Assembly (NCBI GenBank): GCA_001029735.1
Contig: CP011213.1
Coordinates: 268,087 to 332,086 of the forward strand
DNA from: Berkelbacteria bacterium GW2011_GWE1_39_12
GTDB lineage: Bacteria > Patescibacteriota > UBA1384 > UBA12157
DNA length: 64,000 nucleotides
Direction: 5' to 3'
The position numbers and the translations under genes were made by a program. The notes beneath the pieces were generated by a model. It searched no databases. It worked only from the letters and a program-made list of their open reading frames with translations, and was not told where the DNA came from. This document shows, piece after piece, positions 1 to 62,641 of the stretch (positions are counted from its first letter, which is position 1; each line of letters opens with the position of its first letter).

Positions 1-130
1 TGTAACGCAAAGGCCACAACCAATACATAAATCTGGATCAACTGTCGGCGTTTTGGCCGTATTTTCTTCTGACATGTTTTCTCCTTATTATTATTTCCCT
101 TCCTTTAGTTTACCTAAAAATAATCTTTTT

Positions 131-237
131 GCAACCTGCAAAAGCATTTGGAGGAATGTGCTGTGTACTCGCAGTGCAACCTGCAAAGACATTTTGGAGG
201 AATGTACTGTGTATTCGCAGTGCAACCTGCAATAGCG
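131..237. repeat. tandem direct repeat, ~46-bp unit x ~2.3 (gcaacctgcaaa..ggaggaatgt.ctgtgta.tcgcagt)
   Basis: Seen directly: unit at 131-175, 176-221, partial 222-237. Intergenic, 3' of the ZIP transporter gene. Confidence 0.8.
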
Positions 238-246
238 AAATTATAG

Positions 247-993
247 TTAAAAAGCTATTTCTAATAAAAAATACAATATGAAAGAAACGAACCCTCCGGC
301 AACGAGTACTCTTTTTCTGCCGATTCTTAGTGAGGTCGGAATTAACTCATGAAACGAAATAAAAAGCATCGCGCCAGCTGCTATTGAGAGAAATATCGGA
401 TTTAGAAAAGAAAAATAATGTATTAAGATCACACCGAGAATTGCCCCTGAAAGAGTCGATATTCCCGAGAATAATGCTGATTTATAGAAAAATTTGTTAC
501 AATTATATTTTGCAGAAGCAACCGTTAGGACATATCCTTCTGGAATATTATGGATGAAAGTTGCGGCTACCAATAAAAAACCAAGATCTGTTGATGATTC
601 AAATGAGCTGGGGATAGCAAATCCTTCAGGAAAATCATGCAAAATCAAACCGATCGCCAAAAGATAGGACATTCTGACCATACATTTTCCGTCACAGTCT
701 TCAATCGCTTTAACAGAGTGGATATGAGGCAATATTCTATTTATTCCCCAAACTACACATGCGCCGATTGTTACCCAAATCAATGATTTAAATTGAATGA
801 TAGAATAAGCGCCAGGTATCAGTTCAAAAAAAGAAATCAAAATCATAACACCGGCAGCAAAGGCAGTCCCGAAAGCAATATGAGTGGCTGACCTTTTGCC
901 ATGACTCCCAAGGATCACACCCAGCAAAGTAGCCAATCCTGAAAGAAAGGCCAAAACTAACACGGGTAAATTTTTTACGATAAACTCAAACAT
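247..993 (-). CDS. ZIP family metal (Zn/Fe) transporter
   Basis: Multi-TM protein with HNIPEG / HDFPEG / HELIP ZIP signature motifs. The longer ORF overlaps tRNA-Glu, so start placed at the MFEF Met (ATG 991-993). Confidence 0.75.
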   Translation of the reverse strand: MFEFIVKNLPVLVLAFLSGLATLLGVILGSHGKRSATHIAFGTAFAAGVMILISFFELIPGAYSIIQFKSLIWVTIGACVVWGINRILPHIHSVKAIEDCDGKCMVRMSYLLAIGLILHDFPEGFAIPSSFESSTDLGFLLVAATFIHNIPEGYVLTVASAKYNCNKFFYKSALFSGISTLSGAILGVILIHYFSFLNPIFLSIAAGAMLFISFHELIPTSLRIGRKRVLVAGGFVSFILYFLLEIAF

Positions 994-1031
994 GTATGAA
1001 TCAAGCTCTTCTTTTGGTTGACTTTTTTGTT

Positions 1032-3448: not shown

Positions 3449-4529
3449 AGGTTCTTTCTAACTCGACCATCATATCTTTGATATTAAATCTCAATTTTGC
3501 TTCTTTCTGTGCCATTTCCCCCATTTTTTTCGCCATTGATGGATGCCTTAACATTTCCAATATTGCATCTGAAAGCGTTTCTGAATTCGATGGCTCAACC
3601 AATAGACCGGATTTACCCTCCATCACAACTTCGGGAATACCACCTGTGTTGGTAGCTACAACTGGCAAACCAACATCCATTGCCTGGACCATCGCCAAAC
3701 CAAAACTCTCCGAAAGAGAAGGCTGAACATAAAGGTCAAATTTCTCTAAATACTTAACTGGATTAGGAACAAAACCGGTAAACTTTACATAATTTTTAAG
3801 CTTAAGCTTTTTTACCTGGTCAACTAAATGTCGACGATATTCACCATCACCAATAATTTCTAATCTGATTCCAGGAAATTCCTTAATGACTTTTGGAAGT
3901 GCACCAATTAAATACTGAACTCCTTTTTGCTGATTTAATGTCCCGACGGTCGCCAAAAGAAATTCTTGTTCACTTTGAAAAATCTTGGCCTGATGGCTTG
4001 TAGGCTCAATCCCGTTATATATGACTTTGACTTTTTCATAACGAGAAATACTAGAAGAAACCATAAATTCTTTTACAGCTTCCGAAACAGCAATGTTTAA
4101 TGTTGTAAAAATATCTAAAAACCAATTAGCGCTATAGTGAACAAAGTTCATCCATTTACTCTGCAACTTAAATTGCTTGGTCCAAAGATGTTCAGTGTAA
4201 ATAACTGGTTTATTGGCACCTATCGCTGCCAGTCTCCCTAAGACACCAGCTCGGGTTCCGTGAACATGAATAATTTGCGGATTAGACAGTTTAATTTCTT
4301 TTCTAATACGTCGAATTGCTTCCATATCAAAACGGTCATTCATCGGAATTACTTCCAAATCGATGTGTCGATGTAATTTTCTAATTTCTCCGGCTAGAGG
4401 CCCAGGAGGACAAATGCAGTGAAGCGCAAACTTTTCCGTATCTATGTTTTCCAAAATACCTAAAAGATGACGCGGCGCGCCAGCAAGAGAAGAGTCTCCA
4501 ATAATTTCTAAGATACTAATTTTTTTCAT
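3411..4529 (-). CDS. glycosyltransferase family 4 (GT-B, GT4/GT1)
   Basis: C-terminal ESFGLAMVQAMDVGLPVVATNTGGIPEVV motif. Start chosen at MKKISIL (ATG 4527-4529, AAGGA upstream). ORF track extends to a TTG at 4559. Confidence 0.8.
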   Translation of the reverse strand: MKKISILEIIGDSSLAGAPRHLLGILENIDTEKFALHCICPPGPLAGEIRKLHRHIDLEVIPMNDRFDMEAIRRIRKEIKLSNPQIIHVHGTRAGVLGRLAAIGANKPVIYTEHLWTKQFKLQSKWMNFVHYSANWFLDIFTTLNIAVSEAVKEFMVSSSISRYEKVKVIYNGIEPTSHQAKIFQSEQEFLLATVGTLNQQKGVQYLIGALPKVIKEFPGIRLEIIGDGEYRRHLVDQVKKLKLKNYVKFTGFVPNPVKYLEKFDLYVQPSLSESFGLAMVQAMDVGLPVVATNTGGIPEVVMEGKSGLLVEPSNSETLSDAILEMLRHPSMAKKMGEMAQKEAKLRFNIKDMMVELERTYEQVVANSAISQ

Positions 4530-17284: not shown

Positions 17285-17451
17285 TTATATGCTCACATTC
17301 TAAAATATTTTTTGTTCGCATTTTCAATATACCTCAATAAATTTATATTTTCAATCAATAATTTATACAAATATCCTACATGATAACCACCAGCGATGCT
17401 GGTGGTATCTAACCTGCCGGCTAATCACCGGCGAAAAGTATTCTCTTCTCC

Positions 17452-17552
17452 CCTGTCATTCCAGACTGAATGGTAATATCAGATCTGGAATCCAAAAACA
17501 AGGCCATAAACTGGATTCCCGATGTCGGATTACAATCCGACTCGAGAATGAC
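17452..17552. mobile_element. gene-less hairpin element (MITE-like) closed by a ctgtcattc / gaatgacag inverted repeat; related to the TIR modules around the GIY-YIG gene at 62.2-62.6 kb
   Basis: tgtcattccagac..tctggaatcc (17454-17493) parallels tgtcattccggac..tccggaatcc (62563-62600). Internal palindromes ggaatcca..tggattcc and cggatt..aatccg. Confidence 0.45.
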
Positions 17553-17612
17553 AGATTAAATCAATGCTTTAAAACGCACACACCGGCTAAAGCCGGTAGT
17601 ATTTTCTTTTAA

Positions 17613-17651
17613 CAAAAAAAGGCGCTGTTCGTGAGATAAGCGTCTTTTTTT
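17613..17651 (+). terminator. hairpin aggcgc..gcgtct flanked by A7 / T7 (bidirectional-type intrinsic terminator)
   Basis: Read directly. Confidence 0.45.
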
Positions 17652-17737
17652 GCCCTACTTGAGCGAAGGCTGGCTTTTATATTTTCCATCTTATTTTTAG
17701 TGGAGAAATCCGCAGATTTTCAGCTTGGCTGGAAATC

Positions 17738-17884
17738 TTACTTTAAGGCCGAACCTTCACCGTTTTCGATCCCGTTTTCTTGCTGAATAGTTCCGTCGGC
17801 GGATAAAGTGTATTGAATAGCTTCGTCAACTTGTTCAATTTCTTCTAATTGTTCCGCAACCGGTACTCTATTTTCTTGTTCCAT
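17738..17884 (-). CDS. unannotated small acidic protein (48 aa: MEQENRVPVAEQLEEIEQVDEAIQYTLSADGTIQQENGIENGEGSALK)
   Basis: Not in ORF track (<60 aa). AGGAGAGG RBS 4 nt upstream of ATG 17882-17884. Clean frame to TAA. Confidence 0.5.
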   Translation of the reverse strand: MEQENRVPVAEQLEEIEQVDEAIQYTLSADGTIQQENGIENGEGSALK

Positions 17885-26619: not shown

Positions 26620-27735
26620 ATGAGCCTATCCATTGGCATTGTGGGTCTACCAAACGTGGGTAAATCCACTTTATTTAATGCCTTAGTCAAAAATTCGCAG
26701 GCGCAAGCCGCCAATTATCCATTTTGTACCATCGACCCAAACGTCGGTGTAGTTGAAGTACCTGATAAAAGGCTAAAAGTTTTAAGCGATATTTCTCACT
26801 CGGCCCAGATTGTTCCAGCCATTGTAGAATTCGTCGATATCGCCGGATTAGTTGCCGGCGCTTCCAAAGGCGAAGGCTTGGGCAATAAATTTTTAGCTAA
26901 TATCCGTGAAACCGACGCCATCTGCGAAGTCGTTCGAGTTTTCGAAGACGAAAAAATCGTTCATGTGGCCAATAAAATTGACCCAATTTCCGATATCAAA
27001 GTTATTGAAACAGAACTAGCAATTAAAGATCTAGAAACTGTTGAGAAACGGTTACAATCTTTGGAGAAAGACAAACGAGCTGGCAACAAAGAAGCGATCA
27101 AACAATCTGAGATCTTAAATAAGATCAAAGTCTTGCTTGACGAGGGCAGGATGGCTCGAGAAACTAATTTAGATGAGGATGATGCTGCAGCTATCAAGGA
27201 ACTCGGCCTTCTGACCCTAAAACCGGTTTTCTATGTTTTTAATGTTTCTGAAAAACAACTCGCTAATCCGGTCATTGCGAGTGAAACGAAGCAATCGATT
27301 GAAAAGATCGCCGCGGCCTCCGGCCTCGCGATGACAAATATTATTATTTTATGCACCAAAATTGAAGCCGAGTTAAATGAATTATCGGATGAAGAAAAGC
27401 AAGAATATTTAAACGAATTAGGCATTGAACATTCAGGCATGGAAGTACTCGCCCAAAAAGCTTATGATGTTTTGAATTTACAAACCTATCTAACCTCTGG
27501 TGAGAAAGAAACTCGCGCTTGGACAATTAAAAAAGGTGCCACTGCACCTCAAGCTGCCGGCGTTATCCATGGAGATTTTGAACGCGGCTTTATTGCGGCT
27601 GATATCGTCAAATACGACGATTTTGTCGCTAATAATGGCTGGGCCGGCGCTAAAGAAAAAGGGTTGGTCAAAACCCAAGGTAAGGACTATATCGTTCAAG
27701 ATGGTGATATCGTAATCTTTAAGTTCAATGTTTAA
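26620..27735 (+). CDS. ychF: ribosome-binding ATPase YchF (Obg family)
   Basis: [19 protein letters not shown]-loop, coiled-coil insert, C-terminal TGS domain. 371 aa. Confidence 0.9.
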
Positions 27736-62009: not shown

Positions 62010-62185
62010 TTAGATGCCTCCTACATTTGTCTGATTTTTTTGTGTTTCTGGCAATCTTCCGCCAAATTGTTAACACAAAACTATACCCCAAAAACGTCGC
62101 TTTGTCAAGACAGATAGAGCATTAAATCTTGAATTTATCTCAAAGAATCAATTATAGATACCGGATCCGGTTGCCAACCGATCCG

Positions 62186-62641
62186 GTATGACATTTTATC
62201 TAAAAACTTGTCATCCCGGACCGGCTGCAGCAGGATCCGGGATCCAGTAGACTTGTCATCCAGGGCTTGACTTGGGATCCAGATCTTCCCAGCCCGGATT
62301 ATCTTTTTCTATTAGTTCTATCTTCCATATCCTTTCCCAATTTTTGAGCTGTTTTTCTCTTTGAAGAGCTGATTTTATGTCATTGGTTTCTTCAAAATAA
62401 ACTAGACGGTTCACATTATATTTGCCGGTAAATCCATCTGAAGTTTTAGTCTTGTGTTGATAAATTCGCTTTGAGAGATCGGATGTGACTCCAATATACA
62501 GAGTACCGTTTCTTTTACTGGCCATGATGTAAACATAGTAATGTTTCATGGTTCTTTCTTTTGTCATTCCGGACAGGTCGACGCATGATCCGGAATCCAG
62601 GATAGATACCGGATCCTGCTTTCAGCCGGTCCGGCATGACA
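62186..62641. mobile_element. GIY-YIG nuclease gene flanked by ~35-bp terminal inverted repeats (TTGTCATsCCGGACCGGCTG....CAGGATCCGG) plus extra TGTCATyCC motif copies
   Basis: Left TIR 62207-62241 cttgtcatcccggaccggctgcagcaggatccggg. Right TIR (reverse complement of 62607-62641) attgtcatgccggaccggctgaaagcaggatccgg, about 31/35 identical. Additional motif copies at 62186 (rc), 62252, 62560. Confidence 0.55.
62256..62549 (-). CDS. GIY-YIG nuclease family protein (UPF0213/COG2827-like)
   Basis: MKHYYVYIMASKRNGTLYIGVTSDLSKRIYQHKTK...NRLVYFEE...AL..EKQLK.W (GIY..YIG..R..QH..E..N). Alternative ATG at 62567 lies inside the repeat motif. Confidence 0.8.
   Translation of the reverse strand: MKHYYVYIMASKRNGTLYIGVTSDLSKRIYQHKTKTSDGFTGKYNVNRLVYFEETNDIKSALQREKQLKNWERIWKIELIEKDNPGWEDLDPKSSPG

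Follow-up and report, generated by a model that had tools for sequence, protein, structure and literature searches.

Among the described systems closest to the locus studied here are the REP/REPIN elements of Proteobacteria, which reportedly occur together with RAYT genes coding for an HUH Y1 transposase, as described by Nunvar in 2010 and by Bertels and Rainey in 2011. To our knowledge, the enzymes driving palindromic repeat families so far are essentially these HUH RAYTs. The Rickettsia palindromic elements (RPEs), said to have been described by Ogata et al. in 2000, are as far as we know confined to Rickettsia, and we know of no enzyme associated with them. Double-hairpin elements (DHEs) are described from fungal mitochondrial genomes in PMC10085805, which cites Paquin et al. 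2000. Our analysis of a 64-kb stretch of a Berkelbacteria genome (hereafter, the window) leads us to interpret its segment 17453-17554, with a probability of about 0.7, as a gene-less doublet of a REPIN/RPE-like, cross-phylum family of selfish palindromic DNA and as a non-autonomous relative of an element that bears a GIY-YIG nuclease gene. Five points can be stated as observed: the membership of this segment in the family, the compensatory conservation of the hairpins, the association of the family termini with GIY-YIG genes, the absence of the doublet at the orthologous locus, and the in-frame insertions in protein-coding genes. Full-text literature searches found no published account of an association between GIY-YIG genes and palindromic repeats.

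The doublet (17453-17554, without strand assignment) is composed of a unit A, a spacer and an inverted unit B, and is closed by a 9-bp terminal inverted repeat, CTGTCATTC / GAATGACAG. These are the arms ctgtcattc (17453-17461) and gaatgacag (17546-17554) already recognized in the initial annotation, with coordinates off by 1-2 nt; they are 9 nt long and 100% complementary. Unit A (17454-17496, plus strand) reads TGTCATTCCAGA-[CTGAATGGTAATATCAGA]-TCTGGAATCCAAA, with an 8-bp outer stem ATTCCAGA/TCTGGAAT, and unit B (17510-17553, minus strand) reads TGTCATTCTCGA-GTCGGATTGTAATCCGAC-ATCGGGAATCCAGT and belongs to a subfamily common to other Berkelbacteria. Both are about 40 nt long, have the form TGTCAT-stem-loop-stem-ATCCAG, and conform to the unit consensus (TGTCAY, a stem of 8 bp or longer, an inner hairpin free to vary, RTCCAG). 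The spacer between them (17497-17509, without strand assignment) has an unconserved sequence and equals the position of the GIY-YIG gene in gene-bearing relatives. The segment thereby displays an inverted pair of units, outward-facing TGTCA...TGACA termini and a short spacer, and it contains no gene, as previously proposed. Its RNA folding energy is -38.9 kcal/mol (z -4.8 compared with shuffles), DNA folding gives a z of -5.1, and the predicted fold, either a four-way junction or two hairpins, has z values from -4.2 to -5.1 on either strand.

A gene-bearing relative is present in the same genome, at 62256-62549 on the minus strand of the window, where a GIY-YIG nuclease gene is accompanied by five units. 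The internal parallel claimed between tgtcattccagac..tctggaatcc (17454-17493) and tgtcattccggac..tccggaatcc (62562-62600) holds and includes a compensatory G>A / C>T change within the stem, and the far end, for which a resemblance had been noted, goes beyond it, being a second, inverted copy of the unit, TGTCATTCTCGA-GTCGGATTGTAATCCGAC-ATCGGGAATCCAG, on the minus strand. In the window, TGTCATYCCRGR with at most 1 mismatch occurs 9 times, compared with 1.3 expected, and this number was reached by 0 of 100 shuffles. The plain pairwise alignment that had been suggested for linking the two loci failed to do so, with BLAST matches of 9-13 nt that are not significant (E 0.2), an outcome set beforehand in the initial annotation as refuting its proposal, so that the relationship requires a structural model. 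Our covariance model R2, built from 58 units of other genomes with the window sequence excluded, recognizes exactly seven units over the 64 kb: the two of the doublet (unit A, 41.6 bits, E 4.8e-10; unit B, 47.3 bits, E 9.3e-12) and the five around the GIY-YIG gene. The doublet thus belongs, as judged by an independent model, to the repeat family that flanks the GIY-YIG gene, and the link between the two loci is one of conserved unit architecture with variable loops rather than of a long alignment.

Three of the five units, all R2 matches, lie downstream of the GIY-YIG gene within 62153-62283: 62153-62193 (minus strand, 44.2 bits), 62209-62248 (plus strand, 43.7 bits) and the degenerate 62254-62283 (plus strand, 18.7 bits), which overlaps the stop of the gene and supplies its final codons and TGA stop. 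The other two (62562-62601, plus strand, 43.5 bits, and 62601-62641, minus strand, 38.6 bits) form a complete doublet at 62562-62641, directly upstream of the start codon, and a GIY-YIG homologue in a viral contig (L014) adjoins a similarly arranged doublet. The encoded 97-aa protein has a minimal Slx1/UPF0213-type domain (PF01541, E 1e-17). The closest solved structures to its predicted structure (pLDDT 89) are UPF0213 BH0048 (1zg2), followed by Slx1 (rmsd 2.5 A) and HIGLE, and I-TevI comes at rank 17 of the fold search. Slx1 is a nuclease acting on branched DNA. The protein is a bare catalytic domain, devoid of the DNA-binding extension that homing endonucleases use for long targets. Stand-alone Slx1-like GIY-YIG proteins form at least 7,986 clusters in bacteria, and we know of no established role for them.

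The family extends well outside this genome. A pattern scan of the genome collection retrieved the unit in at least 120 genome stretches; the matches listed include Alphaproteobacteria, Anaerolineae, several Patescibacteria, Ignavibacteria, Nitrospinota, Elusimicrobiota and deltaproteobacterial orders such as Desulfobacterales and Syntrophobacterales, and 25 stretches of viral contigs also carry it. The doublet is the usual form, an inverted partner, strictly defined, accompanying 71 of the 124 units, and the spacers of these 71 doublets vary from 7 to 65 nt with no conservation of sequence. Most loci are gene-less, with a GIY-YIG gene adjoining the units at 2 of the 120 listed genome loci and none at the remaining 118. 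Seen from the side of the nuclease, the usual locus is a gene with a TGTCAY unit upstream and an RTGACA unit downstream: within 150 nt, the former was found at 56 of 73 GIY-YIG loci and the latter at 59 of 73, each compared with a background of 7%, and both termini were present at 46 of 73 (again versus 7%), between roughly one fifth and one third of the loci lacking detectable termini. Since the same termini bracket GIY-YIG genes elsewhere, the doublet is aptly described as a gene-less counterpart of the GIY-YIG-associated element. This part of the non-autonomous derivative originally proposed is upheld by the shared termini; the direction implied by it, loss of the gene, is not, the data being compatible with a gene that invades doublets.

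Some members of the family reside inside protein-coding genes. The window contains, besides the intergenic doublet and the 62-kb cluster, a doublet of a sister subfamily at 27270-27336 (plus strand, GGTCATTGCGAG..GCAATC / GATCGC..CTCGCGATGACA), which lies in frame within ychF and encodes a 23-residue stretch; GTCATCCTGAG.. and GTCATTGCGAG.. denote sister subfamilies. The ychF insertion site holds different subfamilies in the window and in L233, and it is empty in L234. In another Berkelbacterium, atpG carries two in-frame family members, and further ones are found between Pfam domains in NadE, in a GT4/GT1 glycosyltransferase and in a class I tRNA synthetase. At least four doublets occur within the 16 kb sampled from a related Berkelbacterium.

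In the reading that we prefer, the element is made of two inverted units with TGTCA...TGACA termini and conserved unit borders 5'-TGTCAT ... ATCCAG-3'. Complete copies have a gene for a stand-alone GIY-YIG nuclease of ~95 aa (Slx1/UPF0213 type) between the units, whereas gene-less copies, which outnumber them by far, have just a spacer of 7-65 nt. The units would extrude as hairpins or as a cruciform, the structure-specific nuclease, acting in trans from a gene-bearing copy (62256-62549, for example), would nick the conserved borders, and the element would be copied via break repair, in a homing or gene-conversion-like manner, without target duplication. An RNA function would be unnecessary. 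The link between nuclease and repeat is correlative, and it is from this correlation that we infer mobilization by the Slx1-like enzyme. The doublet is not a recent product of the resident GIY-YIG copy, because loops and stem variants differ between the two and their alignment is not significant; the copies closest to it occur in another Berkelbacterium (L070, L125), where the unit B subfamily is near-identical.

The same arrangement might have arisen in the reverse direction. Doublets would then be primary, spreading by other means or being kept by the host, and the GIY-YIG gene would be a free-standing homing endonuclease copied into the spacer with the units as homology arms, making 17453-17554 an uninvaded landing pad. 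We regard this as possible, if rather unlikely. It would account for the position of the gene, which is exactly that of the spacer, for the absence of target-site duplication, expected of repair-mediated copying, and for GIY-YIG proteins being ~70% identical across phyla despite the varying subfamilies of their flanking units. The occurrence of two unit subfamilies at one ychF site in two lineages could likewise reflect conversion. Homing endonucleases are presented in PMC1564403 as recognizing uninterrupted targets and not their own DNA, a preference that would also suit such a landing pad. However, the arrival of gene-less doublets at new sites, coding regions included, is left unexplained, the 97-aa protein is devoid of the extension mentioned above, and, as spacers are unconserved, there is no obvious sequence target in them. 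More tentatively than our main reading, and with odds that we put somewhat below even, we propose an undescribed kind of cross-phylum selfish DNA, a GIY-YIG counterpart of the REPIN-RAYT system, in which a ~95-aa Slx1-like GIY-YIG nuclease would mobilize, or home into, TGTCA...TGACA doublets that spread with no duplication of the target and time and again insert in-frame peptides of 25-45 residues into essential proteins (YchF, ATP synthase gamma, NadE, tRNA synthetases).

The surroundings of the doublet bear on its mobility and on a possible use by the host. A bidirectional terminator hairpin (17612-17652, without strand assignment), outside the element and kept in relatives, ends a minus-strand 48-aa gene (17738-17884). 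A promoter-like -35/-10 pair for the M16 peptidase gene (17326-17354, minus strand; TTGAAA, 17 nt, TATATT; 10/12 matches, as a consensus match only) lies between the M16 start codon and the doublet, which is thus placed between terminator and promoter. A duplicated CCGG hairpin with AGTATTYTCTT flanks the doublet at unequal distances (17417-17447 and 17581-17608), an observation that our preferred model does not explain. The doublet is missing at the syntenic M16 locus of two related Berkelbacteria, L229 (M16 77% identical) and L231 (68%), which have intergenic gaps of 156 and 102 nt, respectively, compared with 453 nt in the window, and which keep the genuine terminator. The initial annotation had described an insertion between the M16 peptidase gene and a plus-strand terminator: the insertion is consistent with these two absences, and it is only the strand assignment that has to be abandoned, the terminator being bidirectional. 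According to our preferred reading, the doublet would have arrived between terminator and promoter, upstream of the M16 gene, in the window's lineage of Berkelbacteria. The intergenic DNA of the relatives is too diverged for base-by-base alignment, so that a precise empty site at this locus is not definable, and loss of the doublet in the relatives, instead of insertion in the window's lineage, is conceivable. Neither strain-level presence/absence polymorphism at the doublet nor any near the GIY-YIG gene was detected, arrangements being identical in all contigs with the exact M16 protein and in all those with the exact 171-aa neighbour protein of the latter, respectively; a database record for the 440-aa ORF was not found. 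The flanks of the doublet (..tcccc | gatta..) contain no target-site duplication, and adjacent direct repeats are at chance level in 90 other doublets.

A repeat of mobile origin used by the host in the manner of REP/BIME, be it as an insulator or terminator backup, as an mRNA 3'-end stabilizer or as DNA bound by a nucleoid or topology protein, seems to us distinctly improbable. The position of the doublet, with a terminator on one side and a promoter-like site on the other, would favour such a use, as would the preference of doublets across genomes for convergent over divergent gene ends (13 versus 5), the maintenance of the hairpins by compensatory changes, and one Berkelbacteria copy (L070, 3514-3604) located just ahead of a terminator-like hairpin. 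Against it, close relatives do without the doublet at this locus and keep the genuine terminator, no T-run follows either hairpin of units A and B in the intrinsic-terminator test, and the terminator scan gave terminator-like sites solely at 17581-17598, outside the doublet. Orientation relative to the neighbouring genes is unbiased (15 versus 18), and copies lie within coding regions, where a role of this kind would be senseless.

The hairpin structure is under selection, and the stems covary strongly. In the family alignment, 93.8% of the cells pair, compared with at most 48% in slid controls, the covariation score is 0.413 versus 0.100 in shuffles, and 10 of 14 pairs have changes on both sides; where the scan patterns imposed no base, 33 of 35 and 105 of 109 distinct units show Watson-Crick pairs. 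The four-way junction was considered as the conserved structure and rejected, as the stem variants of A and B units often differ within a doublet; conservation therefore extends no further than the hairpins of the two units and their TGTCAT/ATGACA termini of 6 nt. This family-wide covariation, together with the stable fold predicted on either strand, would fit a structured ncRNA, be it an sRNA with a four-way junction or a 5' leader on the M16 mRNA, for which the resemblance to the GIY-YIG flanks would be secondary. We consider this very improbable. The helices between units that such a junction needs are unconserved, the two strands fold equally well across 94 doublets (42 versus 51, p 0.40), G-T pairs are no commoner in the units than A-C mismatches, the predicted M16 promoter is downstream of the element, the doublet is not conserved at the orthologous locus, and its relatives are translated within proteins. 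A known ncRNA family, named in the initial annotation as evidence that would speak against a repeat, was looked for in Rfam and none matched the doublet: at gathering score there was no relevant match in the whole window or in 20 related loci, and with E up to 10 the best matches overlapping it within 17300-17700 were sub-threshold (11.6-18.3 bits, E 1.6-5.2). Lastly, a chance palindrome unrelated to the 62-kb locus, to which the non-significant BLAST comparison might point, is refuted by the motif enrichment, the fold z-scores of about -5, the independent covariance-model matches (E around 1e-10 to 1e-11) and the near-identical unit B subfamily of another Berkelbacterium.

A tie to palindromic substrates would endow stand-alone GIY-YIG proteins with a testable role, the structure-specific cutting of hairpins or cruciforms, and, if true, a nuclease superfamily would join the short list of enzymes driving palindromic repeat families. 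Doublets also cause mis-annotation, with start codons called inside ATGACA termini, spurious small ORFs and unit-encoded tails on GIY-YIG proteins; if the cross-phylum class of selfish DNA proposed above is real, its repeats would also explain stereotyped peptide tails and small 'hypothetical proteins' in annotations. In the streamlined CPR genomes, doublets moreover give rise to real in-frame insertions in essential proteins, and they can on that account serve as natural markers for permissive sites and for recent movement of DNA in organisms that resist cultivation.

Compared with known systems, the doublet recalls DHEs in being a small, potentially mobile unit of two adjacent GC-rich hairpins. 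As portrayed in PMC10085805, DHEs occur both between genes and within rRNA genes, with near-identical copies across species, but they are mitochondrial, unrelated in sequence and without a documented obligatory nuclease partner, so that the likeness is by analogy only. The homing endonucleases I-TevI and the Seg proteins also tie a GIY-YIG nuclease to selfish DNA that spreads by break repair without target duplication, whereas, following PMC1564403, homing enzymes are HEase/UvrC-branch proteins with long DNA-binding extensions, unlike the bare Slx1-branch domain of the window. The MITE-like character initially proposed is borne out in part: the element is short and gene-less, its terminal inverted repeats are perfect (9 of 9 bp) and its termini are common to a gene-bearing element in the same genome. 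It departs from MITEs in that target-site duplication, a classical hallmark, and a DDE transposase are lacking, its interior consists essentially of two hairpins with free loops and not of a deleted parent copy, and it does not align significantly with the resident gene-bearing copy; the gene-bearing copies that share its ends encode a nuclease and not a known transposase. With RPEs, the family shares palindromic repeats of about 100 nt that are intergenic as well as in frame in conserved protein genes, where the peptides that they contribute fall at surface or linker positions that tolerate them, the copy at 17453-17554 being itself intergenic. It differs from them by its recurrent GIY-YIG partner and its defined two-unit architecture, and the likeness drawn here is one of features. 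The gene flanked by the units is also what distinguishes them from REP/REPIN elements, since it codes for a minimal GIY-YIG protein of Slx1/UPF0213 type, with PF01541 as its only Pfam match, and not for the HUH Y1 transposase (Y1_Tnp) of RAYTs. In addition, the conserved tail is TGTCAT/ATCCAG instead of GTAG, the family crosses many phyla, CPR included, and in-frame copies are tolerated in protein genes. The two systems agree in other respects: the palindromes are short and imperfect, and their 5' tail is conserved; they lie mainly between genes, favour convergent gene ends and come without target-site duplication; gene-less copies are abundant (hundreds) and those flanking one small nuclease or transposase gene are rare; and units typically arranged as inverted doublets flank a candidate mobilizing gene.

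Our analyses show that the segment at 17453-17554 of the window is bounded by a 9-bp perfect inverted repeat (CTGTCATTC / GAATGACAG), inside which one ~40-nt module is present twice in opposite orientations, forming a doublet: unit A on the plus strand (17454-17496; TGTCATTCCAGA-CTGAATGGTAATATCAGA-TCTGGAATCC) and unit B on the minus strand (17510-17553; TGTCATTCTCGA-GTCGGATTGTAATCCGAC-ATCGGGAATCCAG). Every unit forms a hairpin with an outer stem that starts within a conserved TGTCAT and finishes in ATCCAG, and the single-stranded segment folds into a four-way junction (RNA folding energy -38.9 kcal/mol for the plus strand and -44.9 for the minus strand, DNA folding energy -22.6, z-scores for RNA and DNA all -4.2 to -5.1). 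The inverted repeat, the two modules and the folding z-scores therefore bear out the hairpin of the initial annotation, whose closing repeat and internal module, placed at 17452-17552, were off by only 1-2 nt. The far end, in which it had seen a resemblance to the right end of a GIY-YIG-associated element, does show that resemblance and is more than a look-alike, being a complete second unit.

For the 14-pair hairpin, 93.8% of cells over 66 units are paired, with both-side changes in 10 of the 14 pairs and a covariation score of 0.413 versus 0.100 in shuffled data, a value reached by 0 of 500 shuffles; with slid partners as a control, pairing falls to 48% or less. As a selection-free check, stem positions that the scan patterns left free form Watson-Crick pairs in 33 of 35 viral and 105 of 109 genomic units, with nine A:T pairs observed versus ~1 predicted by independence. 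The A and B units of one doublet often differ in stem variant, so conservation covers the two hairpins and the TGTCAT/ATGACA ends but does not extend to the helices that join the units in the four-way junction. RNA folding energy favours neither strand in a set of 94 distinct doublets (mean difference 0.26 +/- 3.7 kcal/mol, 42 versus 51, p 0.40), G-T pairs are not commoner than A-C mismatches in the units, and, next to co-directional genes, doublets point either way about equally often (15 versus 18). These three observations oppose a strand-specific RNA and, together with the lack of an Rfam match to the element or to any of 20 related loci, uphold the earlier view that the segment is not an ncRNA.

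In the window, a PF01541 GIY-YIG domain (E 1e-17) lies in a 97-aa ORF on the minus strand (62256-62549) that is surrounded by five units: a complete doublet directly upstream of the start codon (62562-62641) and three units downstream (62153-62283), one of which (62254-62283) provides the ORF's final codons and TGA stop. There, CCCTGGATGACA encodes the end residues ..DPKSSPG and the stop; unit-encoded tails in GIY-YIG homologues include WIPTQVGND, LDPGSEAGMT and MCHPRLDRGS. Gene callers start the ORF at an ATG within the upstream ATGACA terminus (62547-62567), giving 103 aa instead of 97. In gene direction, the order at 62153-62641 is A, B', gene, B', B', A, with more units than the simple A-gene-B' form, which suggests nested or tandem insertions, elements landing beside each other. 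Pairwise alignment of the studied doublet with this locus yielded BLAST matches of only 9-13 nt (E 0.2), and taken by itself would therefore have spoken against the proposed link. A covariance model of 58 units, all from other genomes, was searched against the window with speed filters off and gave exactly seven matches in the 64 kb: the two units of the studied doublet (41.6 and 47.3 bits; E 5e-10 and 9e-12) and the five at the GIY-YIG gene. The relation is thus real and rests in a conserved architecture with free loops, and the matches to both loci confirm the segment as a gene-less relative of the GIY-YIG-associated repeat.

Among the genome matches listed, a GIY-YIG homologue adjoins the unit in only 2 of 120 loci. 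From the gene side, we surveyed 80 metagenome loci encoding GIY-YIG relatives (54-74% identity), where a gene-oriented unit typically ends 10-25 nt before the ATG and an inverted unit begins at the stop codon or just beyond. Termini were counted in the 73 loci with enough flank: TGTCAY occurs within 150 nt upstream of the gene in 56, RTGACA within 150 nt downstream in 59, and both in 46, against a background of 7% per 180-nt window. With units and termini on either side, the gene thus sits in the place of the doublet spacer. Stem subfamilies GTCATCCTGAG.. and GTCATTGCGAG.. flank other members of this protein family, a very large one with at least 7,986 clusters at E <= 1e-5 and ~70% identity across phyla. 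The AlphaFold model of the 97-aa protein is confident (pLDDT 89.4); the closest solved structure is UPF0213 protein BH0048 (1zg2), followed by Slx1 of the Slx1-Slx4 branched-DNA nuclease (6seh; rmsd 2.5 A, 73 columns), HIGLE and the UvrC N-terminal domain, with I-TevI only 17th. This Slx1-like ranking fits the scheme of Dunin-Horkawicz et al. (PMC1564403), who placed stand-alone prokaryotic GIY-YIG domains in the Slx1 cluster.

An exact-pattern scan of species-representative genomes for TGTCATTCCRGA..TCYGGAATCC found the unit in at least 120 genome stretches, and a looser scan in 25 viral-contig stretches. Hosts among the matches listed include Alphaproteobacteria, Anaerolineae, deltaproteobacterial orders such as Desulfobacterales and Syntrophobacterales, Ignavibacteria, Nitrospinota, Nitrospiraceae, Elusimicrobiota, Marinimicrobia and, within Patescibacteria, Berkel-, Doudna-, Morani- and Saccharibacteria. 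Units usually occur as doublets: among the matches listed, 71 of 124 units are followed 7-65 nt downstream by an inverted partner under a strict definition, and many more have one by eye. In multi-copy genomes with differing flanks, TGTCA and TGACA mark the exact limits of similarity. The nearest relatives of the studied doublet (stretches L070 and L125) come from one assembly of another Berkelbacterium and have the window's unit B subfamily (..TCTCGAG-TCGG..GTA..CCGAC-ATCGGGAATC..). Some viral contigs carry single 31-nt units (TGTCATTCCCGA-N9-ATCGGGAATCC), more than 10 in 39 kb, and not doublets (L006, L007, L017 and L027 of IMGVR_UViG_3300028837_002970; L008 and L012; L009; L021); no GIY-YIG homologue was found in the examined stretches of these contigs, and their units may have a different role, as regulatory hairpins or nuclease sites. 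In one Anaerolineae assembly (L040, L050, L112, L113, L118), the doublet lies within a larger ~250-nt repeat, with ~90 nt conserved upstream and ~70 nt downstream, and related genomes hold other doublet copies with unrelated flanks; this is a composite repeat, which the doublet has invaded or which has captured it.

At the M16 locus, two Berkelbacteria relatives (L229 and L231) have the same order of VTT-domain gene, Phd-like gene, 48-51-aa ORF, terminator and M16 peptidase gene. Their gaps between small ORF and M16 gene measure 156 and 102 nt, versus 453 nt in the window, and neither contains a unit; the studied doublet sits between the conserved terminator and a promoter-like M16 site. Similar modules flank it at unequal distances (17417-17447 and 17581-17608), each a CCGGCTAA..CCGG hairpin followed by AGTATT[C/T]TCTT; neither was found in the relatives at this locus, and they may stem from a duplication of the target or a composite insertion, or belong to a second small repeat. 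The 48-aa ORF of the window (17738-17884, minus strand) has no Pfam match and is probably a real small protein gene: with its terminator it is conserved in L229 (ORF 69% identical), and L231 has a called 48-aa ORF in the corresponding place.

Family members inside protein genes are more telling evidence of insertion than this gap. The window's ychF (26620-27735, plus strand), whose product is 100% identical to YchF of an NCBI Berkelbacteria record, contains an in-frame, translated, GC-rich doublet of a sister subfamily (GTCATTGCGAG..GCAATC / ..CTCGCGATGACA; 27270-27336). At the same ychF position, the doublet of another Berkelbacterium (L233, 1150-1255) belongs to a third subfamily (GTCATCCTGAG..CTCAGGATGAC), and other Berkelbacteria, including L234, have no insert, suggesting either a hot spot or conversion between subfamilies. 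In L070, atpG (50-1021, plus strand; ATP synthase gamma subunit) holds two in-frame doublets of the studied doublet's own subfamily (295-380 and 670-755), both translated ..VILE[TP]EGTPTSRIQDLDSRSG.., and a third, intergenic doublet (3514-3604) follows the atp operon and directly precedes a terminator-like hairpin. In Elusimicrobiota and Doudnabacteria, doublets occur in frame and exactly between Pfam domains of NadE (L085, aa 266-291, CN-hydrolase and NAD-synthase), a glycosyltransferase (L077, aa 193-236, GT4 and GT1) and a class I tRNA synthetase (L110, aa 224-254, catalytic and anticodon-binding), suggesting that inter-domain linkers generally tolerate them. The in-gene copies have inserted as DNA, and the proteins tolerate them as linker peptides. 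Neither the studied doublet nor 90 other doublets have a target-site duplication.

The family consists of palindromic DNA elements of two units with conserved borders. Gene-less copies are numerous and copies with a nuclease gene between the units are rare, and insertion takes place at new sites, coding DNA included, without target duplication. We consider 17453-17554 a selfish gene-less member of this GIY-YIG-associated family, with a probability of about 0.7. As to how it moves, the units might extrude as hairpins or cruciforms, an Slx1-like structure-specific GIY-YIG nuclease acting in trans might nick the conserved borders, and the element might then be copied through break repair; that this particular nuclease moves the element is a tentative proposal, clearly less probable than family membership. 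Its main rival keeps the same parts, including the gene in the spacer's place, and reverses the direction, the doublets being landing pads for a homing nuclease gene. A domesticated REP-like role, against which the missing doublet in the relatives' M16 gap and the copies in coding DNA speak, is less likely, as is an RNA function, for which the conserved hairpins might speak and against which the strand symmetry does.

The studied copy is ordinary for its family; it is the family that is of real interest, and it appears to be undescribed so far: full-text searches, with incomplete literature coverage, found no paper tying GIY-YIG genes to REP-, RAYT-, RPE- or MITE-type repeats. The initial labels of "MITE" and "derivative" claim more than the evidence carries; a classical MITE would have a target-site duplication, which these doublets lack. 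Mitochondrial double-hairpin elements (PMC10085805) are an analogue in shape only. Rickettsia palindromic elements (RPEs) are alike in their behaviour within genes, where they insert as linker peptides. Likest in working is REPIN-RAYT: inverted doublets of short palindromes and a single flanked gene are common to both systems, but the gene flanked here is GIY-YIG, not RAYT.
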